Notes: generated by a model from the sequence alone, not told the origin. DNA of 64,000 nt from Candidatus Heimdallarchaeota archaeon (GCA_030603365.1 JAUVXV010000012.1:1-64000), one strand, 5' to 3'. Numbered from the stretch's first letter, positions 1 through 19,650 are shown. Made by a program: numbers and translations.

Positions 1-1988
1 ATCTCAGCTAAACAAGAATAGAAGTTACCCAAATCATTCTGAGTTTTAGCAAATAGAAGCGGTGAGTTCTTCAGTGTATATTTCTTTAGAGCTGCAGTAT
101 ACGATTTGATTGCTAATTTGATGAATTTAGTTCTCCATTCAATTAAAGAAGAATCTCCGATGAATGATTGAATATTCCAAAACTGTGAGGAATACAAACT
201 ATCTATGTTTCCTATGAAAAAAGCAGCATTACCTATTTTCACTATTTCCTCAGGAACGCTCTTGAATAAATTAACCAGCTTCTTGAAATTCGCTGGGATG
301 TCAGGTGCAAGGTTAGATCCAAAACCTAGAGCTTCGCGTAGATAAGGTTCTTCAACTGGCAATTCATAGTTTTCCATTACAAGCAATTTATCATTGTTTA
401 AAGCTCCTAACCATTCTTTCCACAAATACCTTCCCCCGAGGAAAGATTCGGTTTTATAAGCTGCTTTGATGTACCATTCTTTTGGAACTTTCTCTTCTTC
501 AGCTTCAGAATTTAAATCTACCATTTCTTTAAGTAGAGCTTCCTCAGCAGAGTAATTATCATAGTTTGTTTCAATAACAGTATCACCAACTTTTTGGATT
601 AAGACTCCTCTTTTCTTCATTGCGTGCGCAGCAACGAGCTGGTAATGACCTCCATAAACAGCGAAATCTAAAATTTGATGAATTCTTCCATCAGCTGTGT
701 GAAAAATATTTCTAACAGCTCTAACTGAAGTATTTCGAGCATATGCTATATCTATGAAAGTAAGATTGATTTCTTCTTTCAAATGCCAAACATACCACTG
801 GTTATCAGTGAGAATAAGCGGGTAGGGATTGTCCAAACGCATATAACCATATTTCAATAGGAAGCGATAAGCTTGACCAAATTGAACTATATCTCCCCCC
901 ATTATTAGATTATCAATTGAGATTGGATCTTTCTCATCGAGTAATTCAATTTTATTGAATTGGGTTTTTGGATTAATGGTAATTTTCAGTAAAGGTTTTT
1001 TCTCTTTCTCTTCCCAGAAATCCATTAATTTTGCAGAATCAGTCTTATCTGCTAGAAACTCCTTAATGTGTTGAAAATTCTTTATTTCGAAAATTTCAAC
1101 ATCACCGGGAATTGGTAATAGATCTCGTTTAATTTTCTCTCCTTCTTCCTTTATTGTTTCACCTAATGTAGCAGATGCTAAATTACGTGCATCATCTGGA
1201 ACCTTTTCTAAAGTAGCTTGTGAATCTTTCATTGCTGTTCTAACTTGCTTTATAGACATTTGTGGTCTTCGTACTTGCTCTAAAACAGGTTTAAGGCTAG
1301 CTTTTGCGTCACGAATTGTTGTTTTGAGGTCCTGTTTTGATAAAGAATGACGCTTTTCTTCAGCAGATAACTTTGTTAACCCCTTCTTAGTATCCCGAAT
1401 CTCTGTTTGTAAATCCTGTTTTGATAGAACATGCTTTATTTGATTATCCACTACAGGTCTTAAACTTGAAATAACATCTTTTATAGCTAGTTCTAAGTCT
1501 TGTTTTGATAACGAGCGCTTCTTAACACTATCAGAAACTGGACTTAAGCTATTAAGGGCATCCTGAACTGCTGTTTCAAGGTCTTTCTTCAAAACACGTT
1601 TCTTAGCAGTTTCTTCTGGAATTTCTGTTAAGCTAGCTTTTGCATCTCTAATCTCTGATTTCAAATCTTGCTTTACTAGAGCATAACTCATATCTTCAGA
1701 AGAGACTGGAATTAAATTGTCAATTACATCATGAATTGCTGATTCAATATCTTCCTTTAGAACTCGCTTATTACTCTGAACTTGATCTGACAAAGGCTTC
1801 AGTTTCCCAATTGCATCCTTTATCGCGATCTCAAGATCCTCTTTTGTTGTTTCTTCTTTTTCTATTTTCTCAACTTTTTTCAATTTAGATTTTAGTTCAT
1901 CTTTTGAGCTTTCCAGAAGCAAAGCTGTTGGAGACTTAGTTTTCTTACTAGTAGATTTTTTAGAGCGTTTATTTTTTTTCTTGGACAT
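1..1988 (-). CDS. Large protein, truncated by the window edge: Lys-rich N-terminus, nine tandem 28-aa WH2-like repeats, unknown middle domain, start of a TPR region
   Basis: Not in the ORF track. I translated it by hand from ATG at 1988 (AGGTGA SD just upstream); it stays open for 662 codons to the edge: MSKKKNKRSKKS...KEDLEIAIKDAIGKLKPL...IKLAIKSYTAALKKYTLKNSPLLFAKTQNDLGNFYSCLAE. The last segment resembles a TPR helix pair. Confidence 0.9.
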   Translation of the reverse strand, partial: MSKKKNKRSKKSTSKKTKSPTALLLESSKDELKSKLKKVEKIEKEETTKEDLEIAIKDAIGKLKPLSDQVQSNKRVLKEDIESAIHDVIDNLIPVSSEDMSYALVKQDLKSEIRDAKASLTEIPEETAKKRVLKKDLETAVQDALNSLSPVSDSVKKRSLSKQDLELAIKDVISSLRPVVDNQIKHVLSKQDLQTEIRDTKKGLTKLSAEEKRHSLSKQDLKTTIRDAKASLKPVLEQVRRPQMSIKQVRTAMKDSQATLEKVPDDARNLASATLGETIKEEGEKIKRDLLPIPGDVEIFEIKNFQHIKEFLADKTDSAKLMDFWEEKEKKPLLKITINPKTQFNKIELLDEKDPISIDNLIMGGDIVQFGQAYRFLLKYGYMRLDNPYPLILTDNQWYVWHLKEEINLTFIDIAYARNTSVRAVRNIFHTADGRIHQILDFAVYGGHYQLVAAHAMKKRGVLIQKVGDTVIETNYDNYSAEEALLKEMVDLNSEAEEEKVPKEWYIKAAYKTESFLGGRYLWKEWLGALNNDKLLVMENYELPVEEPYLREALGFGSNLAPDIPANFKKLVNLFKSVPEEIVKIGNAAFFIGNIDSLYSSQFWNIQSFIGDSSLIEWRTKFIKLAIKSYTAALKKYTLKNSPLLFAKTQNDLGNFYSCLAE
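1200..1931 (-). repeat. Intragenic tandem repeat, about 84 bp / 28 aa, nine units
   Basis: Conserved Leu at residues 36, 63, 92, 120, 148, 176, 204, 232 and 260 (LKKV, LKPL, LIPV, LTEI, LSPV, LRPV, LTKL, LKPV, LEKV). Units 2-8 are preceded by K[QEK]D[LI]xxx[IV]xD; units 1 and 9 are degenerate. Confidence 0.9.
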
Positions 1989-2072
1989 ACAATTCACCTG
2001 CTTTTTTGAAATGCCTTTTTAAAAGGTTTTATTGTCTAATTTTATCTGTAGTAACAATTGTTAATATAATTC

Positions 2073-2111
2073 TGAAAGAAAAGTGAAAAAATATGGAAAA
2101 ATATGGCAAAA
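2073..2111 (-). promoter_or_regulatory. Phased direct-repeat motif, copy A, upstream of the WH2-like repeat gene
   Basis: Minus strand reads TTTTGCCATATTTTTCCATATTTTTTCACTTTTCTTTCA and aligns without gaps to copies B-D; about 85 bp before the ATG at 1988. Confidence 0.75.
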
Positions 2112-2150
2112 ACAAAAGTATCAGATTAGAATCTATTAAATTGAACATTT

Positions 2151-3107
2151 TTATATTTTATACTCTTGAATTTCCTTATAATTACCATCTGGTATCTTGA
2201 AAGTTTGTATAATGAAATCTATCAATTCTTCCTTTGAATTGGATTCTCTTTTCTCAAGATGTTCATATATGATTTCAATCAACCTCTGTGCTTCTATATT
2301 AGAATCATTTGGTTCTGTAATCAGAGAAATTACAATTTCACCTCTTTCTTGAAAAGCAATTTGTCCATAATTCGAGACAACACTAGCAACTCTCTCATCT
2401 CTTAAAGAGTTGTTTTTATCATTTAGTACTTCAGATAACAAATCCAGAACTGAAATAAGATTATTTCTTACATCAGAGAAATCTAAGAACAATTTGATGT
2501 TACCAAAAATGGACGATATAATTAAACCTTTAGGAGATATCGTTTGTCCTACAGTGATTTCTTGCATTTTTCTAGTAAACCATCCCATTGCATTATCAAC
2601 ATTCATTGCTGTTTTAACGCTAATTTCAAAAATCTGAAAACTTATTTTTGGAAAATTACTGAGTTTTTGTAAATCTAGTACTTCAATAATCTCATCAAGC
2701 TCCATAGAAACTAAATCAGCTTTATTTGCGAGGAAAGCTAAAGCAATTCTGCGATCTACCTCTAAGTTATTAATGAGATACCAAAACCATTCTCTACCCT
2801 CTTCAGTTCGTTTTCTATTAGAAGCATCAAAAATAAAGAGAATGCCATAGCTATTAGCGGCATAGTTCAACCAAAATTGTCTTCTTAAGGTTTGATGGCC
2901 CCCCACGTCAAATAACTTTAGGAGACTATCACCAGCTCTATAGGTTTCAAAGTTTACTCCAATTGTTGGTGAAGTGTTATCTACCCATTTACCTGTAGCT
3001 AACCTTAATGCTAAGCATGTTTTACCTGCTTCATCTAATCCTAGTAAAGTAACTGGAATTCCTTTCTTACTGAAACTTAAACTTGTCATTTTCTCAACCT
3101 TTTTCAT
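2151..3107 (-). CDS. Arf/Sar-like small GTPase (His-type switch II) with C-terminal longin/roadblock-like domain
   Basis: G1 GLDEAGKT, G2 PTIG, G3 DVGGH, G4 NKAD, G5 SVK, plus a ~130-aa alpha/beta tail. Confidence 0.9.
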   Translation of the reverse strand: MKKVEKMTSLSFSKKGIPVTLLGLDEAGKTCLALRLATGKWVDNTSPTIGVNFETYRAGDSLLKLFDVGGHQTLRRQFWLNYAANSYGILFIFDASNRKRTEEGREWFWYLINNLEVDRRIALAFLANKADLVSMELDEIIEVLDLQKLSNFPKISFQIFEISVKTAMNVDNAMGWFTRKMQEITVGQTISPKGLIISSIFGNIKLFLDFSDVRNNLISVLDLLSEVLNDKNNSLRDERVASVVSNYGQIAFQERGEIVISLITEPNDSNIEAQRLIEIIYEHLEKRESNSKEELIDFIIQTFKIPDGNYKEIQEYKI

Positions 3108-3136
3108 TTTATTATCTTTTTCTATTTCCTTAATCC

Positions 3137-4453
3137 TTAATCGATAAATACGAGGTCTCTAAATTGTGAGAGTTCTTCTCTATTCATTCTATTTGGAAAC
3201 TCAAAATTACTCATCAAATTCTCAAAACTCTTTTCTATTTTCTTATTGGGTAAAAGAAATTCTATCTTTCTGTCGGGTAATATCACAGCAATAAGATAAT
3301 ACTGTCTTCCCTTCATTCGATGATCAAGTGGGATATCATCTTTCCCAAAGAAAGCATAAATGATAGTCCTATAATTTTCAAGTTTTGGTGCGGGAATGGG
3401 ACCAAAAACGCCAACTGGTTGTGAGTTTCCTTGTGCAATACTTGTATAGCACATGGTAGAAAAGTATTCAGAAGCAATGCTAATGCTGCGTAAATCCTCT
3501 CTAATCAATTCTCCTCCAAATGAAGCAAATCGGAAAATAGCTACTCCAATATTGTCTTCATTAGCCATTGATATTCTAAGATTTTTTATTTCTTCCTGTT
3601 GCTTGAGATAGTAACTGGCATCTTCTAAGGTAAGTATGAAGGTTTTTCTATCATCATCAGTTACTTGAGTTATAGCTACATGACATGGAAATTCTATCCC
3701 ATCTTTCCTTCGGATTTGATAGATTAATCCATCCATCACATTCCCTTCAAGTATAATAAATGTGAAATCTGGAAAGATGTTGTTGATAAGTGTTGAAGAT
3801 TCCTGTAATTCCTGTAAACTATATCCAATCATCATTTCAAACATTTGATTAGCAAAAAGAAACACTCCTTTTGAATCAATTGAGGCAATTCCTGAGGCGA
3901 TACTTTGAAGGATCTTTGTTGATTCCTTAGATTCAAGATTCCTCTTCTTTTGATGATTAGCATTCTTCAAACTAATATGGATCACTGGTAGAATTTCTAG
4001 AACTTCATCAATTATTTGTTGCGCATCAAAAGATGCTTGAATAAGAGGAATTTCTATCATGAATTCTAAAGAGCTCCTTAGAACATATGGGCAAAAGATT
4101 GTTGGTATGTTTTTTCTTAATGATATGGACCTTTTTCTTAAAGCAGGCTTAGTAATTGAATAGATTCTAGAAATGAGTTTTTCATCCAAAATAGCAATAG
4201 TTTCAAGTTTTTCAGAATTTCTATTATAAGCAGTTACTCTATCTCCTATTTTATTAGTAAAATAGAAAGAACAATTTTCACAATTGTAAATATCAAGCAA
4301 TAAATTGAATACTTTTTCTACTACATCAGAAATTGATGATACTTCTGCTAAGGTTTGAAAGAAGCTAAAGAATGATCTAGTTTTGTTGTCAGGGCTCTGG
4401 AAGTTTTTTTCCTTGTATTTGGTAATTTGAGCTGAGTTCGTCAAACTTATCAC
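3137..4453 (-). CDS. GAF-like + PAS sensor protein with an uncharacterised C-terminal domain, possibly longin/uDENN-like
   Basis: PAS signature ILQSIASGIASIDSKGVFLFANQMFEMMIGYS...RRKDGIEFPC; GAF-like N-terminus; tail with GVFGPIPAP...IYAF...DHR; no kinase or HTH domain. Confidence 0.75.
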   Translation of the reverse strand: MISLTNSAQITKYKEKNFQSPDNKTRSFFSFFQTLAEVSSISDVVEKVFNLLLDIYNCENCSFYFTNKIGDRVTAYNRNSEKLETIAILDEKLISRIYSITKPALRKRSISLRKNIPTIFCPYVLRSSLEFMIEIPLIQASFDAQQIIDEVLEILPVIHISLKNANHQKKRNLESKESTKILQSIASGIASIDSKGVFLFANQMFEMMIGYSLQELQESSTLINNIFPDFTFIILEGNVMDGLIYQIRRKDGIEFPCHVAITQVTDDDRKTFILTLEDASYYLKQQEEIKNLRISMANEDNIGVAIFRFASFGGELIREDLRSISIASEYFSTMCYTSIAQGNSQPVGVFGPIPAPKLENYRTIIYAFFGKDDIPLDHRMKGRQYYLIAVILPDRKIEFLLPNKKIEKSFENLMSNFEFPNRMNREELSQFRDLVFID

Positions 4454-4474
4454 TCTTTACATTCATATTATGAT

Positions 4475-5374
4475 CTAGAATTCCCACTTAACTGAGTCAA
4501 TTAGATTCTTTATTGTATCCTTATCTATTTTTAATTCTCTCTTCATTCGGGACAGAACTTCGAAAAACAATGTCAATCCAGTTTCTCTAGCTATGCTTTG
4601 TTCATCATCCTGATTAACATATAAGATTGCATAGTAATCCCCCTTCTTAAGCATATGAACCACATAATTGTCAATTTTTATAGATGGTAAGGAGTCAATC
4701 ATTTTCAGAGAGTGAGCTCGGAATACTTGCTTTACTTCTTGAATTTCAGTTTTCTTTTCATTTTCGATGAATATCTCATCAAATATAGGTTCAAGTCTGT
4801 CATCCAAAATCTCAAATGCATATACATTCACTGAAGGTTTAGCTTCCATTCTTCTCCTGATAGATTGAGATAACCATGTCCAACATTCCTTGATATTTTT
4901 TCCAGTTACGCTTGATGTTTCAAAGATTCTAAAACTTTTCAGCGGTGATTCACTGAATTTTGTAAGATCAAGTTCTTCAACTATATCTTCTAGACTGAGT
5001 GAGTCTTCTAGGTCAGATTTATTCGCAAAGAAAGCAAAGTTTGCGTCTTTAGGAATCCATTCTTCTACTTTCCACAACCACTCTTTCACCAGTTTCATTC
5101 TATTCTTATCAGTTCTGTCAAATACAAATATACAGCCTTGGCAAGAAGAAACGAAATTTTCCCAGAAAGTTGACCTGAAGGATTGTTGTCCTCCTAAATC
5201 TACAACATCAAAACGATAATCATTTTCTTTAATAATAGAAAGGTCATATCCAACAGTTGGTTGGAAATCATCTTTGAATTCTCCAGTTTTTAAACGATGA
5301 ATGAAGGTAGTTTTCCCAGCTTTTTCTAATCCAGTGATTGCAATCAATGGATGAATTTTCTTTTTAATACTCAT
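4475..5374 (-). CDS. Arf-like small GTPase (Gln-type switch II) with C-terminal longin-like domain
   Basis: GLEKAGKT, PTVG, DLGGQ, NKSD, ETSS; tail VYAFEILDD...YVVHMLKKGDYYAILYV. Confidence 0.9.
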   Translation of the reverse strand: MSIKKKIHPLIAITGLEKAGKTTFIHRLKTGEFKDDFQPTVGYDLSIIKENDYRFDVVDLGGQQSFRSTFWENFVSSCQGCIFVFDRTDKNRMKLVKEWLWKVEEWIPKDANFAFFANKSDLEDSLSLEDIVEELDLTKFSESPLKSFRIFETSSVTGKNIKECWTWLSQSIRRRMEAKPSVNVYAFEILDDRLEPIFDEIFIENEKKTEIQEVKQVFRAHSLKMIDSLPSIKIDNYVVHMLKKGDYYAILYVNQDDEQSIARETGLTLFFEVLSRMKRELKIDKDTIKNLIDSVKWEF

Positions 5375-5417
5375 ACATATCCCAATTAATTTACCGTAAA
5401 ATACATTAATTCTATAT

Positions 5418-5456
5418 TGAAAGAAAAGTGAAAAAACATGGAAAAATAGGGAAAAG
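5418..5456 (-). promoter_or_regulatory. Phased direct-repeat motif, copy B, in the divergent gap between the GTPase unit and the PAS-wHTH regulator
   Basis: Minus strand CTTTTCCCTATTTTTCCATGTTTTTTCACTTTTCTTTCA, about 44 bp before the ATG at 5374. Confidence 0.8.
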
Positions 5457-5536
5457 ACTTTTTTATCATAAAAACCACTGTTATAGTTAGTGCTTTGTAA
5501 TCACATAAGGGTTTAAACTTTATCGTTTTATAGCTA

Positions 5537-8500
5537 TTGAAGAAGGGGATAATGATGTGCATAGGTGTTATAAGCTCTCAATTACTGCTAGATACAGCAG
5601 ATTTTATTTATGTTGCAATTGATGTTGATCAGAAAGTCACTCTCATTAATAGAAAGGGATGTGAGATTCTTGGTTATTCAGAGGATGAAATTATTGGTAA
5701 GAACTGGTTCGATAATTTTCTTCCTAAAGAAGTTGCTGGGGATTTCAAATCTAATTTTGTTAGACGAATTACTGAAAACAAAGAGACCAAACTAGCTAAG
5801 AGCTATACTCTATTGACAAAAGAAGGAGAGGAGAGATTAATTTCTTGGCACAGCACTTTTTTCAATGATGAAGAGGGAAATTTAGTTGGTGCTTTATGTT
5901 CAGGAGAGGATATCACAGATTATACTAGAACGAAACAGATGCTCGAAGCAAATGAAAGAAAATTTAGCAAATGTTTTAATCATTCTAATGATGGCTATGC
6001 ATTAAGAAAGTTAGATGGAACTATTTTGGACGCAAATCTCAAATTTCTCGAATTATTTGGTTACAAGAAAGATGAAGTGATTTCTAAGAATATTAAAGAA
6101 ATCGAATTACTAGAAGATTCTAAAGAATTAAGTCGATTGATAAAAGAAATTGGTAAAGAAGGATTTCTTCAAGTGGAAACAACAGCAAGGAAAAAGGATG
6201 GAACAACATTCCCCATTGAACTAAACGGAATCACATTTGATTTAGAGGGAGAGAAAGTAGTCTTTAACATCATTCGAGATTTAACAGAAAGTAGGAAGAG
6301 AGAAACTGTTTTAAGGGAAAGTGAAGAGAGATTTCGAGGATTGTTCGAAACTGCTGCAATTGGTATGGCAATAGTAGATCTGGAGGGGAAGCCAGTCGCT
6401 AGTAATGAAGCTTTACAAAAAATGCTAGGATATACAAATGAGGAACTATGTAGTATGACTTTTACTGAGTTTACTCATCCTGACGATGCTACAGTTGATA
6501 TGGATCTTTATATGGAGTTAATTGCAGGTAAAAGGAAGTACTATCAGATAGAGAAAAGATACATTACAAAGAATAAAAAACTCATCTGGGGAAATCTAAC
6601 AGCTACTCTAATTCGAGATGAAAATGGTGAGCCACTTTACGGTATTGGTATGGTAGAAGAAATAACTCAGCTGAAAGAAACTATAATAGCTTTAGCAGAA
6701 AGTGAATCAAAATATAGGACATTACTCGAAAGTCTACCTCAGAAAATTTTCCATAAGGATGCTGATCTGAAATATGTTTCATGCAATGAGAATTTAGCTA
6801 ATGATCTAAATATTAAACCGTCTGAGATAAAGGGAAAAACTGATTTTGATTTCTTTACAAGTGAACTTGCAGAGAAATACAGAGCTGAAGATAAGAGAAT
6901 AATGAAAGAAAGAAAAGTTGAAACAATAGAAGAAAAAACCGTAAAAAATGGAAAGGAATATACAAGTGAAACTACTAAAATTCCATTATATGATGAAAAA
7001 GGAGAAAGTGTAGGAGTCATTGGAATTTATTATGATATTTCAGAAAGGGTAAAAACTGAACGAGAATTACAAGAGAGCGAGGAAAAATATCGCAGTTTTG
7101 TACAGAATTTCCAAGGAATTGCATTCAGGAGAACATTGGATTTCAAACCCATTTTCTTCCATGGAGCTGTAGAAGAAATCACTGGCTACACAGAGGAAGA
7201 GTTTGTATCTACCTCACTTACTTGGGATAAACTCATTCATCCAGAGGATATTGTAAAGATAAAAGAGCTATTAGAGAAATTAAGTAATGTTCCAGATTTA
7301 TTTAATGAAGGAGAATATAGAATTATCCATAAGAATGGAGAGATTAAATGGATTAATGAGATAGTTAGGAATATTTGTGATGAGAAAGGAAAACCAATAT
7401 ATGTACAGGGGTGTATACATGATCATACTGAAAGAAAAGTTATAGAAGAGAAAATTAAGGAAAACGAGGAAAAGTTTCGTACTCTTTTTACTGAAATGAA
7501 GCAAGCTTACTCCTTATATGAAGCTATATATGATAAAAGAGGAGACATTGAAGATGCAATATTAATAGAAGCTAATCCAGAATATGAAAAAATAGTAAAC
7601 AAGAAGAGAGAGGAAATAATTGGTAAGAAAATATCAGAAATCTATCCTAACTTAAAGAAACAAGAGGTTAATCCAATAGCAATACTAGGAAGAACCGCAA
7701 TAACAGGAGAAACTGTAATATCAGAATACTATAACAAAGATGTTGGTAAATGGCTTTTAGCTAAATCTTTTTCTCCAATGAAAGATCATGCTGCAATATT
7801 ATTTGAGGATATCACAGAAAAACGTAAAATGGAGAAAGAATTAGAGAAAGAAAGAAAAGCAACACAACAATATTTAGACATTGTAAATATCATCCTAACT
7901 GTAATCGATGCAAATGAAAATGTCATATTAGTCAACAAAAAAGGATGCGAGCTTTTAGGCTATGAACACGAAGAGATAATTGGGAAAAATTGGTTTGAAA
8001 ATTATCTGCCAAAAAGAGTTCGAGAAGAAACAAAAGAAATTTATCAAGACTTATTAGCTGGTAAACTAACCCACTCTGAGTCCCATGAGAACCTCATTCT
8101 CACTAAAGATGGTGAAGAGAGACTAATAGCATGGGATAATACCTATATTAGGGATGAGGAAGGAACAATTGTTAGTACTTTAAGTTCTGGAAGAGACATA
8201 ACTGAGATGAATAAAGCTCAAAAAGAACTTAAAGAAAACGAAGAAAAATTCAGAAGTATCTTCAACCATTCTAATGACGGATATATTTTAAGATCAGTTG
8301 AAGGTGTAGTTTTAGAAGCAAATCCTAGATTTCTTGAGATATTTGGGTACGAATCTACTGAAGTCATTTCTACTAATATAAGGTTAATCAACACATATGA
8401 AACTGAGGAAGATCATATAAGTAGAAAGCAAGAAATCGATGAGAAAGGGTATGCTCAGTTTGAAACTTTTGCTACCAGAAAAGACGGTTCTATTTTCCCA

Positions 8501-10780: not shown

Positions 10781-10783
10781 CTT

Positions 10784-10822
10784 CTTTTCCCTATTTTTCC
10801 ACATTTTATCATTTATATTTCT
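10784..10822 (+). promoter_or_regulatory. Phased direct-repeat motif, copy C, upstream of the hybrid kinase
   Basis: CTTTTCCCTATTTTTCCACATTTTATCATTTATATTTCT; first 18 nt identical to copy B. It may also act as a T-rich terminator. Confidence 0.65.
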
Positions 10823-10907
10823 AAATTCAGTTATAAAGATAAGGGGTTGGTAAACTAAAACGAATATCTGATAAGATTAAAATCACTTTCAAAGGATTGG
10901 GATCAAA

Positions 10908-13900
10908 TTGCCTACTAAAACAGAAAATAAGAATGAAACTGAGACGAGTTCCAATGTATTATCCGATTTTTATGGAAGGTTTGATGACTTAGGAGAAGAC
11001 CTTATGAAACTATCTTCTCAAGAGCATATTTGTACTATTTATCGAAAAGATGAAGACAAGATAGATTCTATTATGGAATTCCTTAAAACAGGCATAGTAA
11101 AAAACGAGAGAAGTGTAATTATAGTTGACAAAAAATCAAAAGAAGATATTCTAAAAAAGATGAAGTCTATAGAAGATATTAAGAATCTTCTCAATACTTC
11201 AGCTATAGTGTTCGTAGGTTCAGAAGATATTTATGGTAACAAATCTGATTTTAATCTAGCTAGAACCATTGAATCAATTGAACCTTATTTGGAAGTTCCA
11301 CAAGAAGACAACTTCAATGGTTTAAGGATAATTGTTGAAATTTTACCTCTTAAAAACAAAGACACAACTGTGAATATGAGTTTGGAATTTCATTCAAGTA
11401 TCGACAAACTCATTTCAAACAGAAATATTAATTTTTTCTGTTTATACAACGAATATAGATTCGAATCCAAAACGTTATTAGATGTTATTTTCTCGCACTC
11501 TAAGTTAATTTTTAATGGTTTTTTATGTGAAAATTCTTTTTCAATGGATCCTCAGCAGCTTCAATTAAAACTAGAAGATAGGTTAGATGACGCACTCTAC
11601 AAAAAAACTGTCTATGAGATTGTTCAAGGTGAGGTAACTAAACAAAAGAGAGTAAAAACAGATTATTACTTTCAAAAAGAAACTCTCAAAGGCATTAATG
11701 ATTCTGTCTTTATTTTAGATTTTGAAGGCAATATACTTGAAGTAAACGAAGCTGCATACACAACAAGAGGATATACAGAAGAAGAGATACTAAGTCTGAA
11801 TATTTTAGACATAATGAGCTCAGAAAACAAAGACTTATTTGATTCGAGGATCGAAGAACTAAAGGAAAAGAGGGAGATAACATTTGAAACTACTCATTAT
11901 TGTAAAAATGGAACAATATTAGATGTGGAGTTTAAAACTAAAATAATCAGTTATGATGATCAACAGTATATTTTAAGTGCTGGAAGAGATATAACAGAAA
12001 GAAAAATAGTTGAAAAAGAAGCAAAAACTAGCGAAGAAAAATACAGAAGTATCTTCAACAATGCCAATGATGCCATTTTTTTATTAGAAGAATGTGAGGA
12101 TGGTAGATTTAACAAAATCGTTGAAGCAAACAAACAAGCTGTAAAAATGTATGGCTATTCAAAAGAAGAATTATTTAAAATGAGCCCCAATGATTTTAAT
12201 GCTACTGGGTATGTTGAAACTGAAGAAACCTTAAATGAATTCTTAAAAGAAAGAAGAATAAGATTTGAAAGAACACACAAAACAAAAAATGGTAAAATAA
12301 TTAATGTTGAAATTAGTTCTCAGTTGTTTGAATTAGATGGAGAAACAGTTAGTCATGCAATGGTACAAGATATTACAGATAGAAAGAAGGCTCAAAGAGA
12401 ACTTAAAGACAGCGAAGAAAAATTCAGGATGATTTTTAATAGTGTTAATGATGCAGTGTATCTTTTTAGTATTGAAGGGAATCTGTTGCCATCCAATTTT
12501 ATTGAAATCAATGATGTTGCTTGCAAGATGCTAGGTCACACTAAAGATGAATTTAGAAAGATGTCTCCAATCGATTTAGCATCAAAGGGAAATAAACAAA
12601 GAATTTCAGAGGTTTTGAGTAAACTTACAAAGGCAGGAAACATTACTTTTGAAAGTACTCATATTACAAAAGAAGGAAAACATATCCCAGTAGAAATCAG
12701 TTCTCATACCTTCCAATATCATAACAATCAAATGGTGCTTTCAATCGTTAGAGATATTACCGAAAGGAAAAAGAGTGAAGAAAAATTAAGAAGGTTGAAC
12801 GAAGAACTAGAAGAAAAAGTTGTTCAGAGAACTTACCAAATGGAGACATTGTACAATATTATTAAGGAAATATCTGAAACCTTCGATTTAAATGAAGCAA
12901 TGAGAATTATCACAAAATATATTTCAAAATTGGTTGATTATGACATTATTTTTCAGCTGATTACCCAAGAGGAGTTAAATCACATTCATATAGAAGCGCC
13001 CAAAGGGGATAAGGGAGTAATTGATGATTTTATAAAAAACGTCAAAGAAGAATTTGCAGAACTAAATCCTGATGCTTTGAATAATCGCGATGCAACAACT
13101 ATTATAACTTCAGATAAAAAGACAATTCAAAACATATTGTCACACATATCCATACCGCTTATTGCTGAGGATAAAGTAGTTGGATATGTTGTAATAGGCT
13201 CAGAACAAAAGGATGCTTATATTGAAGAAGAGATCTGGTTCTTGTATAAAATCGCAGACAACATTTCTCATACTCTTCAAAGATTAAAAGTAATTCTAAC
13301 TGCAAAGGATGAATTAGAAACAGTTCTTAATCATACATCCGATAGCGTCATACTCATTAATAATAATGATTCGGTAGTGATGACCAACAAAGCTGGAGGT
13401 AGATTTTTAGAGTTGATTAATTGTTCAGAGACGGATGGTATAGATAATGAAATATTAAACCTTGAAGAGCTTAAAGGGATTGACAAAAAAGAATTATCTC
13501 TGTATGGTAGAACCTACTATGTTTCCATGAATCCAATTAAGACTGATTTTGTTCATGGTTGGCTTCTAATTATTCATGACATAACTGAAGAAAGAGAGCT
13601 GCAGAAGAAGATACTGCATCAAGAGAGATTAGCTACATTAGGAAAGATAACTGGTGGTATCGCTCATGATTTTAACAATATTCTTGCCACTATTATCGGT
13701 GCAGCTGATTTCTCTTTGATGAATGCTGATAATATTGAATCGAAAGAGTTTCTGAATTTAATAATCAGACAAAGCGAGAAGGGAGCATCATTGATAAGAC
13801 AGATGTTAGATTTTACTAGACAGGCAGTGATAAGACCAAAACCTATTTCTTTACTTAATTTTATAACAGAATTTTCTAGGGTAATTAGATCTTCCTTACC

Positions 13901-14753
13901 AGAAAATATCTCTCTCTCGGTTAACACTAAAGATTGGACAGTTTTCATGGACCAGGTACAATTGCAGCAAGTTTTTTTGAATCTTATATTCAATTCAAGA
14001 GATGCCATCAGTAAAGAAGGAAACATCAAAATCTTTATCGAAGAAATTGAGCATTCAAACATCATAGATTTCGAAGGAATGGAAATTGATAAAAGTCAGG
14101 ATTACATTCATTTCATGGTTGAAGACAATGGGGAAGGAATGAATAAACAAACAAAAAAGATGATCTTTGAACCCTTTTTCACAACAAAAGATCCAGGAAA
14201 AGGAAGTGGGTTAGGATTAGCACAGGTTTATGGTATTGTAAGGCAGTCAAATGGATATATCGATGTAGAAAGTGAAATGAAGTTAGGAACAAAAGTCCAT
14301 TTTTATATTCCAAAGTATGAGGGTTTAGTAGAAGAAGAGATTGTAGAAACAGCAAGATCAGGAGAAGGAAGAATTTTACTAGTTGAAGACGATGAAGACG
14401 TAAGAGAGATTACCAAAATAATGTTAGAGAACTACGGATATATAGTAGTTACTGCAGAAAACGGGAAAATAGCTCTAGATTTATATAACGATTCTTTTGA
14501 TGTAGTCTTAACAGACATTATTATGCCTGTTATGGGAGGAGAAAAACTGATTGAGAAGTTGTTAGAAATAGATCCACAAATAAAATGCTTAGCTATGACA
14601 GGATATTCAGATACGAATGTTCCAAAAGGTGTCAAAGTTCTAAATAAACCAATAACAAGTTCAAAACTAGTCAACTACATTCAAAACGAGCTTGTACAAG
14701 AAAATAGTCAAGAAAAGATAGTTCAGTATAAGAAAAGAGAGGATGGTGGTTAA
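10908..14753 (+). CDS. Hybrid sensor histidine kinase: MEDS-PAS3-GAF-PAS-HisKA-HATPase-REC
   Basis: MEDS (HICTIY...GLRII...CLYN); H-box GGIAHDFNN; N-box NLIFNSRDA; DNGEGM, FEPFFTTK, GSGLGL; receiver LLVEDD...TDIIMP...KP. Confidence 0.93.
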   Translation: MPTKTENKNETETSSNVLSDFYGRFDDLGEDLMKLSSQEHICTIYRKDEDKIDSIMEFLKTGIVKNERSVIIVDKKSKEDILKKMKSIEDIKNLLNTSAIVFVGSEDIYGNKSDFNLARTIESIEPYLEVPQEDNFNGLRIIVEILPLKNKDTTVNMSLEFHSSIDKLISNRNINFFCLYNEYRFESKTLLDVIFSHSKLIFNGFLCENSFSMDPQQLQLKLEDRLDDALYKKTVYEIVQGEVTKQKRVKTDYYFQKETLKGINDSVFILDFEGNILEVNEAAYTTRGYTEEEILSLNILDIMSSENKDLFDSRIEELKEKREITFETTHYCKNGTILDVEFKTKIISYDDQQYILSAGRDITERKIVEKEAKTSEEKYRSIFNNANDAIFLLEECEDGRFNKIVEANKQAVKMYGYSKEELFKMSPNDFNATGYVETEETLNEFLKERRIRFERTHKTKNGKIINVEISSQLFELDGETVSHAMVQDITDRKKAQRELKDSEEKFRMIFNSVNDAVYLFSIEGNLLPSNFIEINDVACKMLGHTKDEFRKMSPIDLASKGNKQRISEVLSKLTKAGNITFESTHITKEGKHIPVEISSHTFQYHNNQMVLSIVRDITERKKSEEKLRRLNEELEEKVVQRTYQMETLYNIIKEISETFDLNEAMRIITKYISKLVDYDIIFQLITQEELNHIHIEAPKGDKGVIDDFIKNVKEEFAELNPDALNNRDATTIITSDKKTIQNILSHISIPLIAEDKVVGYVVIGSEQKDAYIEEEIWFLYKIADNISHTLQRLKVILTAKDELETVLNHTSDSVILINNNDSVVMTNKAGGRFLELINCSETDGIDNEILNLEELKGIDKKELSLYGRTYYVSMNPIKTDFVHGWLLIIHDITEERELQKKILHQERLATLGKITGGIAHDFNNILATIIGAADFSLMNADNIESKEFLNLIIRQSEKGASLIRQMLDFTRQAVIRPKPISLLNFITEFSRVIRSSLPENISLSVNTKDWTVFMDQVQLQQVFLNLIFNSRDAISKEGNIKIFIEEIEHSNIIDFEGMEIDKSQDYIHFMVEDNGEGMNKQTKKMIFEPFFTTKDPGKGSGLGLAQVYGIVRQSNGYIDVESEMKLGTKVHFYIPKYEGLVEEEIVETARSGEGRILLVEDDEDVREITKIMLENYGYIVVTAENGKIALDLYNDSFDVVLTDIIMPVMGGEKLIEKLLEIDPQIKCLAMTGYSDTNVPKGVKVLNKPITSSKLVNYIQNELVQENSQEKIVQYKKREDGG

Positions 14754-15144
14754 AATCTGTTTTTGCAGAAAGAGTGAAAATCTTATTGTTAAATATAAAG
14801 AAAAGAAAAGAATTCTACTAGTAGAGGATGATGATATGTTACGTGAGATAACTGCATTAATTCTTAGAAAATTCCAATTTGACGTTCTTGAAGCTGTTAA
14901 TGGTTTCGATGCATTGCAATTGTTTGATGAGACTATTGATCTGGTCTTAACAGATATTGTCATGCCGAAAATGGATGGTATTGAACTAATTCTAGAGTTG
15001 CAAAAAAAGGATCCAGATCTGAAATGTATTGCGATAACAGGTTTTTCCAATGTAAATGTTCCAGAAGATATTGAGGTTCTTCAGAAACCAGTAGGGGGCA
15101 AAAAGCTTGCTACAATCTTAAATGAAAGACTAGCAGCAGCATAA
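14743..15144 (+). CDS. Stand-alone CheY-like response regulator
   Basis: RILLVEDD, TDIVMP, ITG and KP receiver motifs. The true start is probably downstream of 14743. Confidence 0.88.
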   Translation: MVVKICFCRKSENLIVKYKEKKRILLVEDDDMLREITALILRKFQFDVLEAVNGFDALQLFDETIDLVLTDIVMPKMDGIELILELQKKDPDLKCIAITGFSNVNVPEDIEVLQKPVGGKKLATILNERLAAA

Positions 15145-15175
15145 GAAATATCAATATAACAATGAGGTAGAAGAA

Positions 15176-15595
15176 ATGGTAGCCAAAGTATCACTAGATG
15201 ATTATGATTTCAAAAAACATAAACATAATGATAAAATAGCTCGAATCCTTCTAGTTGAAGATGATATAGAATTAAATTTAATTATTAAAATAATACTAGG
15301 AAGATTAGGATTTGAAGTCATATCTACTTCAGATGGTAGAACTGCACTGAATTTATATAATAAATCATATGATCTAGTCATTACAGACATTGTGATGCCT
15401 GAAATGGGAGGAGTAGAACTAATCCAAAGGTTAAGGGATCAAAATCCAGAATTAAGATGTATAGCAATTACTGGATACACAAATCAAGCAGTTCCTGAAG
15501 AAATACCTGTTTTGAATAAACCATTTTCAACCACATTACTATTACAATACATAAATGAAGTCTTGAATATTCAAACGACTATAGAAACTCAATAA
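15176..15595 (+). CDS. Stand-alone CheY-like response regulator
   Basis: RILLVEDD, TDIVMP, ITG, KPF; GAGGT SD upstream. Confidence 0.9.
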   Translation: MVAKVSLDDYDFKKHKHNDKIARILLVEDDIELNLIIKIILGRLGFEVISTSDGRTALNLYNKSYDLVITDIVMPEMGGVELIQRLRDQNPELRCIAITGYTNQAVPEEIPVLNKPFSTTLLLQYINEVLNIQTTIETQ

Positions 15596-15675
15596 ATGGA
15601 AATTATTGCATAATAGGTTGTCTTAATTTACTAGGTAGAGAAGATAAAAAATCTAATTGAAAATGGGGTTGAAGT

Positions 15676-17199
15676 ATGGTAAACCAAAAGAAAATAGATT
15701 ATGGAAATCAATTGTTTTCTATAAGTGAAGATATTTTCAACGAGATTAGTAAAAATATTCAAGTTGGTATTTCAATTGTAGATCATGGACATTATATCTT
15801 TATGAATAAAAAATTCAAAGAAATTTTCAGTATTACTGTTAAAGAAGAAAACAGGTCTTTCTCCATATTAGACTACATTGCACCTGAAGATGCTAACAGA
15901 ATTTACAAAATTATTGATTCATCACTTAAAACAAACCAAATGCCTACAGAACTTCAATTTTGGATTATTAGGGGAGATGGAGAAAGAAGATTCATAAACA
16001 ATAAATATACAGTCTTTAAGGGGGGAGAAAAAACTAATACTCACTTAATATTAACAATAGATTGCACTAAGCTAAAATTAACATATGATGCGTTAAGTAC
16101 GAGTGAAAAGAAACTTAGGGAATTGTTCAATAATGCGAATGATGCGATTTTCTTTTCAAGAATAAGAGGAGACGAATTTCTAAGTAATTTCATAGAAGTG
16201 AATGATTTCGCTTGTAATTTGCTAGAGTATACAAAAGAGGAATTACTTGAATTGAGTTCACTAGATATATCAGCTCCAGAAATGAAAGAAGCTAATAAAG
16301 AGATCATTCAACAAATTATAAGAGAAGAGCAAGGAACTTTTGAAACAATACTAATAAGCAAAACAGGGAAAGAAGTACCCGTTGAAATCAGGTCTAACTT
16401 TTTCAATCTAGAAGGGGAAGGAGTCATTTTTACAGTTGCTAGAGATTTAACTGAGCGAAGAAAAGCTGAAAATGAAATCAGGAATCTTAATGAATCATTG
16501 AAGATAATAAATAGCATTTTACGTCATGATTTAAACAATAACCTTTCCGTTATTAAAGGAGCAATTTCCGCTTATAATGATGTTAAAGAACATTCATTTC
16601 TGGAGATGACACTGAAAGCAACTCACAAAAGTTCTGAACTTATACAGAAGATGGGAGAATTAGAGGACGCGCTTATACAAAAGGAAAATCTAACAATACT
16701 AGATTCTGAAGATTTTCTTAATAGAATTATTTCAAGCTATTCACTCTTTAAAGTCACTTTTGAGATAGAAGGTAACGGTAGTTTTTATGTTGATGCAGCT
16801 TTTACCTCAGTAATCGATAATATAATCAATAATGCTATAAAACATGGTCAAGCTGATAAAATTAAAATTTCGATCAAATCTAGTAATGGATTTTGTACGA
16901 TTCAGATAGCTGATAATGGTTCTGGAATATTAGATGAACATAAGAATCATGTATTTGAGCGTAGTTTTAAATATGGTAAAACCGCTGGAACTGGTCTTGG
17001 GTTATATATTGTTAAGAAAAACTTGGAGCGGTATGGGGGCGAGATTACAGTCAAGGATAATTTTCCTAAGGGTACAATTTTTGAGATTAAATTGAAGAAT
17101 AGAGAAGAAAAAGGATTTAAATATAAGTATTTTCCATGTTTTTCCATGTTTTTTCACATCACTTTCAATATAGTATTATTATTTTATAGGGCATTATAA
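15676..17199 (+). CDS. PAS-PAS sensor histidine kinase
   Basis: Two PAS domains; H-box ILRHDLNN; NIINNAIKHG, DNGSGI, GTGLGL. The last ~30 codons run across regulatory motif D. Confidence 0.92.
   Translation: MVNQKKIDYGNQLFSISEDIFNEISKNIQVGISIVDHGHYIFMNKKFKEIFSITVKEENRSFSILDYIAPEDANRIYKIIDSSLKTNQMPTELQFWIIRGDGERRFINNKYTVFKGGEKTNTHLILTIDCTKLKLTYDALSTSEKKLRELFNNANDAIFFSRIRGDEFLSNFIEVNDFACNLLEYTKEELLELSSLDISAPEMKEANKEIIQQIIREEQGTFETILISKTGKEVPVEIRSNFFNLEGEGVIFTVARDLTERRKAENEIRNLNESLKIINSILRHDLNNNLSVIKGAISAYNDVKEHSFLEMTLKATHKSSELIQKMGELEDALIQKENLTILDSEDFLNRIISSYSLFKVTFEIEGNGSFYVDAAFTSVIDNIINNAIKHGQADKIKISIKSSNGFCTIQIADNGSGILDEHKNHVFERSFKYGKTAGTGLGLYIVKKNLERYGGEITVKDNFPKGTIFEIKLKNREEKGFKYKYFPCFSMFFHITFNIVLLFYRAL
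17129..17167 (+). promoter_or_regulatory. Phased direct-repeat motif, copy D, upstream of the pseudo-receiver/GTPase unit
   Basis: ATTTTCCATGTTTTTCCATGTTTTTTCACATCACTTTCA, followed by ATATAG exactly as in copy B. Confidence 0.8.
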
Positions 17200-17238
17200 A
17201 TTGAGAAAAATAATTATAGAAAGAGATGTGAAGTTAAA

Positions 17239-17760
17239 TTGAAATCGAAAATCAAAGATACCAAAAAAGAAAGAGCAACTTCGAATAATAGCATAAAAAG
17301 TTATTTGGACCTAAATTCAGAAAAATCTAACTATAAAATAATAAAGCAATTAAATGAGTTTATAAAATCTGAACTTAAGTCATTAAGATTTCGAAACAGA
17401 AAAATAATCAGAAGTGTTCTAGTTGTTGCTGGAAAATTACAAACAAGATTTCTTTGCGATTTGATTATTAAACAATATGGTTTCTCAGTCTCCACTATTT
17501 CTAATGTAGATGAACTCTTAGATATAATTGCTAGCAATTACGTAGCAATTCTTTTTGATGAAACAGACTACAATTCGAGAGATTTGAAAATTATTGAAAT
17601 AATAAAAGTGACCAGTCCAGGAGTAAAACTATTGTCATTTTCAGCAAATCCAAAATTCAATCGTCAACAAAATATTTTTCCTTCTCATAAAATAGCTTCA
17701 AAAAATAGAGTAGTAAAAGGGAGAAGTGAATTGTTATCTGAGGTATCAACTACGTTATAG
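17239..17760 (+). CDS. Degenerate receiver-fold protein (pseudo-receiver) with basic N-terminal extension
   Basis: SVLVVAG...IIKQYGFSVST...AILFD...IKVTSPGVKLLSFS follows the receiver beta/alpha pattern; the acidic DD pair is missing. Confidence 0.55.
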   Translation: MKSKIKDTKKERATSNNSIKSYLDLNSEKSNYKIIKQLNEFIKSELKSLRFRNRKIIRSVLVVAGKLQTRFLCDLIIKQYGFSVSTISNVDELLDIIASNYVAILFDETDYNSRDLKIIEIIKVTSPGVKLLSFSANPKFNRQQNIFPSHKIASKNRVVKGRSELLSEVSTTL

Positions 17761-17792
17761 AAAAGGAAAATACTATTAATGAGAGTGCAAAG

Positions 17793-18695
17793 ATGGGAAC
17801 TAGAAAACAACCAGTTAATTTTGTGATACTAGGTTTAGAGAATGCAGGAAAAACCACTCTATTAAGAAATATCTCAGGCAAAGAATTTGCTGAGACTTTC
17901 ACCACCATTGGTATGAATATCGAGCAGTTAAGACACAAAGGACTGAATTTTCAAGCAATTGATATCGGAGGACAACTTCATTTTCGTGAAACACTGTGGC
18001 AATATTACACGACTTTAGCAAAAGGTGTTATTTTTGTATTTGATATTTTTGACAGGAAAAAATTCTTCGAAGCAAAACAATGGTTTGAATACATATCAGA
18101 AAGACTCGCCAAAAAAGCAGTTCTAATGTTTCTAGCTAACAAAGTAGATCTGAAAGATGAAGATGACACATATCTAACAACTGAAGAAATAATAACTATG
18201 TTTAAACTTGATAATGTCTCCAAATATCCTGAAAGATCCTTTAGAATATGGGAAACATCAGCTAAAACTGGTGAAAATGTAAATGATGCAATTTCATGGA
18301 TGTTCAATAAACTAGTGGAGTTTGTCAAAGAGGAGTCAAGAATCTCTTTTGTATTGATTTTAGATCAAAATAATAAAACCGTTTATAAGACATCTATTGC
18401 TGAAAAAACCGATGAATTTGAGAGAGTCATTAACAAAATCATCATTCAGATGAAAGTTCTTGGTGCAAATGAAAACATGATCTCAATACAAGATTATATC
18501 GCAAGTGTTAGAACAGAAAAAAATTACAGTGTAGTTGTTGGGGCTGAAAATGGAGTGTCCAAAGATGACCTTTCAACTGCAGCTCTATCTATAACTCAGC
18601 TAATAAAAAATAACTTTTATCCCCCTGAACAATTCAAAGAACAATTAGAAGAAGTTGTGAATATCGCTCTTCTTCAACAATTAAACAAGAAATAA
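17793..18695 (+). CDS. Arf-like small GTPase (Gln-type) with C-terminal longin-like domain
   Basis: GLENAGKT, TTIG, DIGGQ, NKVD, SAK; tail ISFVLILDQNNKTVY...YSVVVGAE...ITQLIKNNF. Confidence 0.92.
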   Translation: MGTRKQPVNFVILGLENAGKTTLLRNISGKEFAETFTTIGMNIEQLRHKGLNFQAIDIGGQLHFRETLWQYYTTLAKGVIFVFDIFDRKKFFEAKQWFEYISERLAKKAVLMFLANKVDLKDEDDTYLTTEEIITMFKLDNVSKYPERSFRIWETSAKTGENVNDAISWMFNKLVEFVKEESRISFVLILDQNNKTVYKTSIAEKTDEFERVINKIIIQMKVLGANENMISIQDYIASVRTEKNYSVVVGAENGVSKDDLSTAALSITQLIKNNFYPPEQFKEQLEEVVNIALLQQLNKK

Positions 18696-18708
18696 AGGTA
18701 TAGTTAAA

Positions 18709-19650
18709 ATGGAAAGAACAACTATAGCAATTACCGGGTTGCCGGGAGCAGGAAAAACATGTTTCACACAGAGACTTCTAACAGGAAATCACATTACATC
18801 CCAACCTACTTTTGGAGTGGATGTAGAATTTGCTTCTTATAAAGGTCTTCCTTTACAAATCTGGGATATGGGTGGACATTTGGCATTTAGAACACATATT
18901 TGGGAAAATTATATCAAAATGTCCTCTGGATTAATATATATTTTTGATGCTTCAGATTTATCCCAAATAGAAGAAAGTGCTGAATGGTTCTGGAAATGTT
19001 TCTCTTGGATAGAAGATAAGAAAGCCCCCATTTTGTTTTTAGCCAATAAATGGGATTTAGTTGAAGATGAAGAGAGAGTCATGAGTTCTATTGTTGAAGG
19101 ATTTAGATTAAATGAAATTGCGCTCAAATCACTTGATTCCCCTTTCAGATTTTTCTTTATATCAGTCAAAACAGGAGCATACTTCTCAGATGCTCTAAAT
19201 TGGTTAATTGTAAAACAATTTATCGAAAAACGAATAACCCATAACAAAATAATCTCATTGGATATTTTCGTAAAAATTGGAGACAGTTTAGCACATATTC
19301 ACGATAATTCTCAAGAAAGAAATGAAGTCCTGAATACTATTGACATATACAAAAAGAAATTTGAACAATCTGAAAGTGAGAAATTAAATCTACTGGAGGA
19401 GATTAGTTATGAAGGTTATAAAGTGCTTCATATATCTCATTCCTTTATGTCTCTTCTTGTAATATCCAAAGAGGATTTTATAGATAGAGCAGGATTTACA
19501 AACATTTTGGAAAAAATAGAAACAGAAAAATCATTTGAGGACATAAATGGGTTCTATACCCTATACGAAAGCGTAAAGAAATTAATCTCAAAGAATTTTC
19601 ACACAAAAATTTCATCCACACTCAGTTGTGACTTGTTAATTACTAATTAA
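18709..19650 (+). CDS. Arf/Sar-like small GTPase (His-type) with C-terminal alpha/beta domain
   Basis: GLPGAGKT, PTFG, DMGGH, NKWD, SVK. Confidence 0.9.
   Translation: MERTTIAITGLPGAGKTCFTQRLLTGNHITSQPTFGVDVEFASYKGLPLQIWDMGGHLAFRTHIWENYIKMSSGLIYIFDASDLSQIEESAEWFWKCFSWIEDKKAPILFLANKWDLVEDEERVMSSIVEGFRLNEIALKSLDSPFRFFFISVKTGAYFSDALNWLIVKQFIEKRITHNKIISLDIFVKIGDSLAHIHDNSQERNEVLNTIDIYKKKFEQSESEKLNLLEEISYEGYKVLHISHSFMSLLVISKEDFIDRAGFTNILEKIETEKSFEDINGFYTLYESVKKLISKNFHTKISSTLSCDLLITN

Follow-up and report, generated by a model that had tools for sequence, protein, structure and literature searches.

The first 19,650 nucleotides of a 64,000-nucleotide stretch from Candidatus Heimdallarchaeota archaeon (GCA_030603365.1, JAUVXV010000012.1:1-64000; the whole stretch is referred to below as the window) carry a cluster of genes that we consider, with a probability of roughly 0.6, to be a signalling island specific to the Heimdallarchaeaceae. 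It would consist of a core of Arf-like GTPases and a PAS protein ending in a domain that we call domain X, to which a sensory cassette has been added, with the whole controlled through a promoter block shared by its transcription units and a regulator bearing many PAS domains. Contig C4, whose first 64 kb form the window, belongs to a host assembly of 3.65 Mb, 17 contigs and 33% GC, and every homologue of its proteins in the databases is labelled either Heimdallarchaeota or Heimdallarchaeaceae.

An initial annotation had read the stretch as one co-regulated circuit in which a two-component core drives paired small GTPases and possibly actin assembly, and a Pfam scan of positions 1-19650 bears out its list of domains. 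The minus strand holds genes for a 299-residue GTPase, a 438-residue PAS protein, a 318-residue GTPase and a protein with internal repeats, and the plus strand holds those for a 1747-residue regulator, a hybrid histidine kinase, two receivers, a PAS-PAS-HATPase kinase, a 173-residue protein and two further GTPases of 300 and 313 residues. The sensory core named in the annotation was recovered as a regulator with 12 PAS units and DUF835, two kinases and the receivers, the third receiver being a pseudo-receiver by profile comparison, and so were its two flanking units, GTPase-PAS-GTPase on the left and pseudo-receiver-GTPase-GTPase on the right. Of the circuit as a whole, the part that stands is a locus-specific and probably co-regulated unit, given its four promoters and their unique motif, whereas neither the phosphorelay as an integral core nor actin as the output could be upheld.

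Conserved core of GTPases and a PAS protein

The four GTPases, at 2151-3107 and 4475-5374 on the minus strand and at 17793-18695 and 18709-19650 on the plus strand, score 95-120 bits against the Pfam family Arf (cut-off 22.3), with a G domain that takes up about 175 of their approximately 300 residues and a C-terminal alpha/beta tail of about 125 residues in each. The N-termini, read from the sequence, are short, with 9-19 residues ahead of the first strand. All four orthogroups have the canonical motifs G1 (GxxxAGKT), G3 (DxGG[QH]) and G4 (NKxD), and each is strongly supported in the tree; between the groups the G domains are 32-36% identical and the tails 9-14%, while the branching among them is unsettled (support 54/36), including whether the pairs arose by duplication of a single pair.

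The G3 motifs read, in the order of the genes above, DVGGH, DLGGQ, DIGGQ and DMGGH. The residue after DxGG is histidine in two orthogroups, as it is in Sar1 and SR-beta, and glutamine in one; the fourth, that of 4475-5374, is mixed, with glutamine in the present genome (G000) and in G024 and histidine in G004 and G016. Given this mixture, the pattern of one glutamine and one histidine GTPase per pair is not conserved.

A structure model of the 299-residue GTPase (4475-5374; mean predicted local distance difference test score, pLDDT, 76.6) gave an Arf-like G domain followed by a tail of the order beta-beta-alpha-beta-beta-beta-alpha-alpha. The top Foldseek match was HodArfR1 (8ouk; E 1e-15, TM-score 0.88 by target, root-mean-square deviation (rmsd) 1.9), and VIA-align returned Arf6 chains at Z 24.8-24.9 in a wide search that covered the G domain only. 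Foldseek also aligned the model to LokiRagO (8yl2) over 296 columns with an rmsd of about 18, a large value that points to a different arrangement of the two modelled domains. The Gtr1_RagA profile reached one of the four GTPases at 20.4 bits, below its cut-off of 22, and had no match to the others. Profile-profile comparison among the four tails found no similarity, although with alignments this shallow the result is uninformative.

Between the two left-hand GTPase genes lies the gene for the PAS protein (3137-4453, -), whose N-terminal region has no family match and is followed by one PAS domain and then by domain X (residues 290-438, nt 3140-3586). In genus g10 of the same family (genomes G041 and G180), all four GTPases have orthologues (48-63% identity) that again cluster with an orthologue of the PAS protein, without the regulator, the kinases, the motif or the repeat protein, and because this second genus keeps them together without the cassette we take the four GTPases and the PAS protein to be the conserved core.

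Domain X

The 149 residues of domain X are the best conserved part of the PAS protein, with a mean column identity of 85%. They have no match to any Pfam family, and a domain X profile run against the PDB returned chance matches only. An exhaustive profile search of 1.84 billion proteins, on the other hand, yielded 184 representatives, and among the 150 matches listed domain X occurs alone and in the architectures PAS-X, REC-X, REC-PAS-X, GTPase-X, TPR-X and PAS-X-GAF-GAF, the GTPase-X fusions being with Ras/Rag-like GTPases. Across 301 sampled Asgard genomes it was present in 73, including nearly all Heimdallarchaeaceae, and in two genera orthologous PAS-X genes adjoin GTPase genes. The genome that carries the island encodes it at three other loci, in a receiver-domain X protein (C15:347791-348672, -), a Cys-rich sensor-domain X protein (C2:74372-75268, +) and a protein in which domain X is N-terminal (C13:298493-299557, +).

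Since domain X follows sensor domains as an output, occurs in fusions with Ras/Rag-like GTPases and is encoded beside GTPase genes in two genera, a role in GTPase regulation is the most economical reading. It is an Asgard-only output module, and its fusion partners elsewhere make it a candidate GTPase regulator. Aligned across the family, domain X keeps Gly-Gln-Gly nearly invariant, along with a Gly-Leu-Phe-Gly-Pro-Leu-Pro stretch and an Asp-Pro-Arg loop whose nearly invariant arginine is a candidate arginine finger. A language-model search with domain X gave one weak lead, a cluster with 19% of members carrying NPR2 (score 0.84), and a word search for shorter homologues found orthologue fragments only. 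Profile-profile comparison of domain X with the four GTPase tails and with the N-terminal part of the PAS protein gave no match, a result that the shallow alignments again leave uninformative.

A more specific proposal can be built on these features, in which the PAS-X protein would be a ligand-gated GTPase-activating protein (GAP) or guanine nucleotide exchange factor of the longin type, acting by way of its Asp-Pro-Arg loop on heterodimers of Arf-like GTPases paired through their tails, in a module switched on by the 12-PAS, KaiC-like factor and with the repeat protein as an effector facing the membrane or cytoskeleton. We hold this to be a tentative refinement, doubtful as a whole, with perhaps one chance in four or five of being right.

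Promoter block and multi-PAS regulator

The initial annotation had reported a shared motif ahead of four transcription units, and this proved correct. The block spans 54 nt and combines a TATA-like box with four helically phased, T-rich 10-bp units of the TGGAAAAA type immediately upstream of it, and it occurs four times in 15 kb: at 2061-2114 (+), serving the repeat gene; at 5406-5459 (+) in the divergent intergenic region, where it faces the minus-strand (left) GTPase operon and is, in addition, some 80 nt upstream of the regulator gene; at 10781-10834 (-), upstream of the hybrid kinase gene and its operon; and at 17126-17179 (-), within the 3' end of the second kinase gene and upstream of the operon of the pseudo-receiver and GTPases. 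Read toward the downstream gene the four copies are uniform, with the four 10-bp units followed by the TATA-like box and then, 45-85 nt on, by the gene. The period of 10 bp puts the units on one face of the helix, and their placement just upstream of the TATA-like box would suit an activator site.

The motif was found to be confined to the island rather than scattered through the genome. A 19-nt core has four matches in the window against 0.07 expected, and a 30-nt core has no copy beyond these four in the 3.65 Mb genome at up to six mismatches. When 7.3 million genome positions were scored with a 54-nt position weight matrix, the four sites gave 57-74 bits and the next best position 19; the matrix was built from 15 instances in five genomes, four of them from this genome, so that the scores are partly circular, but the separation of the four sites from the background is clear despite this.

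Block copies are conserved in position between species with flanking proteins 65-90% identical, and strong copies stand at matching positions in G024, G004, G007 and G006. In G016 and G020, whose regulators are only about 30% identical to the one described here, the copies are variant and the units read TAGAAAAA. Where the DUF835 gene lies on another contig, in G014, the one copy found is degenerate, and there is no block at the GTPase loci of G001, G041 and G180, genomes without a DUF835 gene above cut-off. As strong or variant blocks were found only in genomes with a DUF835 regulator gene, the regulator is the candidate binder, and from this tracking of block with gene we think that it probably binds the block; the co-occurrence is a consistent pattern among kin genomes, not a statistical test.

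The regulator itself (5537-10780, +; 1747 residues) carries 12 back-to-back PAS units, DUF835 and a C-terminal winged helix. DUF835 scores 67-71 bits against a cut-off of 33.1, and the regulator is the sole protein of this genome above that cut-off, while the last 93 residues have sub-threshold matches only, to several winged-helix families (E 5e-5 to 0.03). DUF835 has been described as an inactivated signalling domain of the KaiC type (Galperin 2018, PMC5847659). Orthologues of the regulator range from 984 to 1747 residues, with six PAS stretches in the two that were scanned. At the DNA level, repeats between 5890 and 12464 link PAS segments within the regulator gene and with the hybrid kinase gene (for example 8176-8290 and 11969-12083, 76% identical), which suggests that PAS modules were recently duplicated internally and exchanged.

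It might be argued that the block is no site of the multi-PAS regulator at all, and is either a copied promoter cassette, with bent, phased A-tracts making a strong promoter, or the site of another factor, such as the repeat protein. The block does contain a TATA-like box, so that part of the similarity among copies is that of core promoters, phased A/T tracts bend DNA intrinsically, and the middle domain of the repeat protein, with three helices and a pattern like that of sigma-70 region 4 (see below), offers a conceivable binder. The distribution argues otherwise: the units of the block change along with the divergence of the regulator, and the block follows the DUF835 gene and not the repeat protein, which G001 has without any block and for which no family or PDB match supplies a helix-turn-helix. 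We therefore regard this alternative as unlikely and retain the regulator as the probable binder.

Sensory cassette

Sensory proteins are physically linked to small GTPases in the island, and the complete order of 12 genes recurs in two other species, G004 and G007, with proteins 65-85% identical. In the closest relative, G024 (L012:14527-15757), the regulator has six PAS units and the kinase module has been reduced to remnants, a 264-residue open reading frame with MEDS only and a 110-residue HATPase fragment; all four promoter blocks are kept there. In G001 and G014 the two GTPase operons stand back to back with no kinase/receiver core at the junction, the G014 contig being only 3.6 kb long. 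The neighbourhood comparison thus supports the linkage of the GTPases with the PAS protein and not the kinase/receiver core as an integral component, which is present as remnants in G024 and absent from the cluster in g10. Judged by these arrangements, the motif and the sensory-transcriptional cassette seem to have been added later, and the kinase part is a dispensable accessory.

In the window the kinase module begins with the hybrid histidine kinase (10908-14753, +), composed of MEDS, three PAS domains, GAF, HisKA, HATPase and REC, and continues with two stand-alone receivers (14743-15144 and 15176-15595, +) and the PAS-PAS-HATPase histidine kinase (15676-17199, +), for which Pfam found HATPase_c and no HisKA match above cut-off. 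Across the island HisKA, HATPase_c and Response_reg are all above their cut-offs, which places the module among the two-component systems. The 173-residue protein (17239-17760, +), which heads the right GTPase operon, has no Pfam match; it aligns to the island receivers by profile (hhalign 96%, E 3e-9) with the acidic pair replaced, and on the match and this loss we assign it as a pseudo-receiver.

The two-component/multi-PAS cassette and the GTPase module could also be separate neighbours, the cassette having been inserted into a permissive divergent intergenic region and having targets elsewhere. In several relatives the cassette is absent or has decayed but the GTPases are still there, which is what such a history would leave, and receivers that lack output domains offer no direct link to the GTPases. 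Against it, one genome-unique block precedes the kinase operon, the repeat gene and each of the two GTPase operons, it is the pseudo-receiver that heads the right GTPase operon, and REC-X fusions elsewhere pair receivers with the GTPase-associated domain X. Given these ties, the proposal of two unrelated neighbours strikes us as improbable, no better placed than that of a copied promoter, and we prefer a single island with an added cassette.

Repeat protein

The last gene of the left side (1-1997, -) is cut off at its 3' end by the start of the contig and resumes on contig C11, which supplies about 280 codons more; its true start is probably the ATG at 1988. Full-length orthologues of 898-940 residues consist of a Lys-rich N-terminus, 7-10 repeats of 28 residues, a conserved middle domain and a C-terminal TPR_12 domain. 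Modelling gave the repeats as isolated helices of low confidence, a confident middle domain that is alpha/beta-plus-helical, and a TPR domain, also confident, for which LGN, KLC and OGT were the matches; no other part was matched. The protein has 22 database homologues and was found in 10 of 24 genomes, all of one genus, and in none of 16 genomes from other families of the order. In 8 of the 8 loci examined, from eight genomes, the gene lies directly downstream of the same GTPase orthologue.

The middle domain gave no usable match in Pfam, the PDB or the ESM Atlas. At approximately residues 395-445 of orthologue P0011 (window about 660-810, -) it has three predicted helices with the pattern Leu-Thr-Phe-x-Asp-Ile-Ala ... 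Ser-Val-Arg-x-Val-Arg, a sequence reminiscent of sigma-70 region 4 or of a LuxR-type helix-turn-helix.

Nine WH2-like repeats had been annotated in this gene, of which the repeats themselves were recovered and their identity as WH2 was not. In the window there are eight regular 28-residue units (residues 46-270, nt 1188-1862) and one degenerate N-terminal unit, with self-comparison peaks at lags of 28 and 56, and in every unit the prediction is a short amphipathic helix that stands isolated, with a Pro-containing linker after it. Pfam WH2 (PF02205) did not match the protein at E<=10, and the WH2 hidden Markov model found nothing in the six-frame translation of the genome at the same threshold, though it gave weak matches in 8 of the 14 genomes used as controls. 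When 177,635 PDB sequences were searched with a profile of 38 repeats, there were six chance matches (E 0.9-5.8), none of them a WH2, thymosin or actin-binding chain. The motif after the helix is LRPV or LKPV in two units and LIPV, LSPV, LTEI, LTKL or LEKV in others, so that a basic residue follows the leucine in two of the eight units (three if LEKV is counted). The hydrophobic residues of the repeat are spaced i, i+4, i+7/8, i+11, a spacing different from that of the WH2 helix. The resemblance, judged on sequence, reduces to a short amphipathic helix followed by Leu-x-Pro-Val, a loose pattern only.

These observations bear on the proposal that the protein is a tandem WH2 nucleator or sequestering factor of actin and the island a pathway from sensor to actin, in favour of which one could cite the helix followed in some units by a Leu-basic-Pro-Val type of motif, a 28-residue spacing that resembles tandem WH2 arrays, a genome that encodes two actins and one actin-related protein, and a 2025 preprint in which an Arf GTPase co-precipitated with Lokiactin. 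With the WH2 model empty in protein and genome, the repeat profile empty in the PDB, the helix spacing and basic residues out of line, a protein limited to one genus and without a link to the GTPases in g10, and published Asgard WH2-like motifs that are only four-residue motifs inside gelsolins, the link to actin assembly is unsupported and we judge the proposal very improbable. The actin genes lie elsewhere in the assembly: two paralogues (G000 C1:309232-310374 and C13:60834-61961) are 83% identical, the first of them is 97-99% identical across the genus, and a more distant actin-related gene is on C2.

Other Asgard proteins combine TPR with domain X in a single chain, and for this reason we take the repeat protein most likely to serve the GTPase module as a TPR scaffold or as an effector. 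The Lys-rich N-terminus and the amphipathic repeats may equally well bind membranes.

Genomic setting

To the right the island adjoins, on the opposite strand, genes for a HycI-like protease and for the large and small subunits of a NiFe hydrogenase (19784-22323), which are kept in G024; these mark the right border of the island, and the flanks are unrelated to it. At the other end contigs C4 and C11 join, their first nucleotides overlapping in reverse orientation over about 138 nt (window 1-139, C11:2-139). The gene after the end of the repeat gene on C11 encodes another HycI-like hydrogenase maturation protease, which shares 60% identity with the protease of 19784-20242. A TPR array at 38.8-51.6 kb of the window was checked for domain X and contains none. 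The sequencing runs listed for the locus are of DNA only, from marine sediment and cold seep metagenomes with shares of up to 0.39, and include no RNA run.

Proposed mechanism and its implications

In the island as we envisage it, the core would be four anciently diverged Arf/Sar1-like GTPases, each with a C-terminal alpha/beta domain in a two-domain architecture like that of Rag proteins. The PAS-X protein would sense a ligand and control how the flanking GTPases pair or which nucleotide state they adopt. A cassette sits between the divergent GTPase operons in part of one genus, consisting of the multi-PAS-DUF835-winged-helix regulator and the pseudo-receiver and, in some species, also of a kinase-receiver-receiver-kinase module. 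The winged helix of the regulator may bind the 10-bp units, probably as an oligomer formed through its KaiC-like domain, and this binding would switch the whole island on or off, with the kinases and receivers, where present, adding a phosphorylation input.

Several points weigh against this proposal. The domain X profile matches no solved structure and has no detectable similarity to the GTPase tails, the fold of the tail was modelled at moderate confidence only (pLDDT 51-83), and the structure searches were dominated by the G domain, leaving the tail fold without an independent match. Similarly, the link between regulator and block comes from co-occurrence in close relatives, which are not independent, and the four blocks could in part reflect a history of duplication instead of a shared factor.

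Asgard genomes hold dozens of small GTPases, and a regulator can rarely be assigned to its GTPase. The island offers a closed and testable set. Its four GTPases come with a single sensor whose output domain is as yet unnamed, a single TPR protein, and one transcription factor whose candidate DNA site occurs nowhere else in the genome. Once defined, the activity of domain X would help to annotate about 180 representative clusters, and the pair of motif and regulator could give the first defined regulon of an Asgard DUF835 regulator.

Comparison with known systems

The island as a whole had been put forward as an undescribed architecture, and no description of the whole set was found in the literature searched; its themes, in contrast, are already published, since Asgard Rag-like proteins that join a GTPase to a roadblock domain are known (Tran et al. 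2024, PMC10933270), as are small GTPases wired to two-component proteins in bacteria (PMC4316618). We found no description of three elements, namely the constant grouping of a PAS-X sensor with four Arf-like GTPases that bear tails, domain X as such, and a genome-unique promoter block tying such a set of GTPases to a single multi-PAS regulator.

In the Asgard Rag-like proteins (PMC10933270; LokiRagO, 8yl2) a small GTPase is followed by an alpha/beta domain of about 120 residues and the genes form adjacent pairs, as in the island, and one operon pair from MK-D1 was predicted to heterodimerise through the C-terminal domains (PMC10933270). The island G domains, however, are of the Arf/Sar1 type (Arf 95-120 bits, G4 NKxD) and not of the Rag type, the tails have no sequence similarity to one another or to known families, and the island differs further in that its four paralogues are divided between two divergent operons, accompanied by a PAS-X sensor and served by a promoter motif of their own. 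The closest G domains, both by profile (E 1e-42 to 1e-44) and by structure, are those of the Asgard ArfR/AArf proteins (8ouk, 8oul, 8oum; PMC11914678). The solved ArfRs are single-domain proteins of 175-190 residues, to which the island GTPases add a C-terminal domain of 125 residues, and unlike them the island GTPases lack a long N-terminal amphipathic helix.

In the bacterial modules (Streptomyces conservons CvnA-D, MglA/MglB/RomR and Rup group 1; PMC4316618) GTPases are encoded with kinases, receivers or roadblock proteins, and there as here a prokaryotic sensor is proposed to have the GTPase as its output. Those modules use a single GTPase of the MglA/Rup family, whereas the island has four that are Arf-like, with the putative roadblock/longin-class domain fused to the GTPase and with kinases that are dispensable. 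Measured against a conservon (CvnA kinase, CvnB roadblock, CvnC DUF742, CvnD MglA-like GTPase), the island had no Pfam match to DUF742 or to a stand-alone roadblock protein.

The regulator shares its PAS-DUF835 architecture with archaeal regulators and sensors that use DUF835 as output (Galperin 2018, PMC5847659), and the same survey lists MEDS, present in the hybrid kinase, as another inactivated domain of the KaiC type. The architectures tabulated there are from Methanomicrobia and Thermoplasmata, whereas this regulator is from the Heimdallarchaeaceae; it has 12 PAS units, compared with 6 to about 8 as estimated from orthologue lengths and Pfam, and it adds a C-terminal winged helix and a candidate cognate DNA site.

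Finally, the island invites comparison with the eukaryotic Rag/Gtr GTPases and their longin-domain GAPs (GATOR1 NPRL2/3 and FLCN-FNIP). No TOR pathway context accompanies the island, and among solved longin proteins none matches domain X by sequence or profile. The logic is similar, with paired GTPases whose C-terminal domains are, in the island, putatively of the dimerisation type and with a separate regulator domain, presumably alpha/beta, tied to sensing, and the Asp-Pro-Arg loop of domain X could supply the arginine finger. If the more specific proposal of a PAS-X protein acting on GTPase heterodimers were true, the island would be a compact archaeal counterpart of the Rag-GATOR/folliculin logic of nutrient sensing, built on Arf-type G domains.

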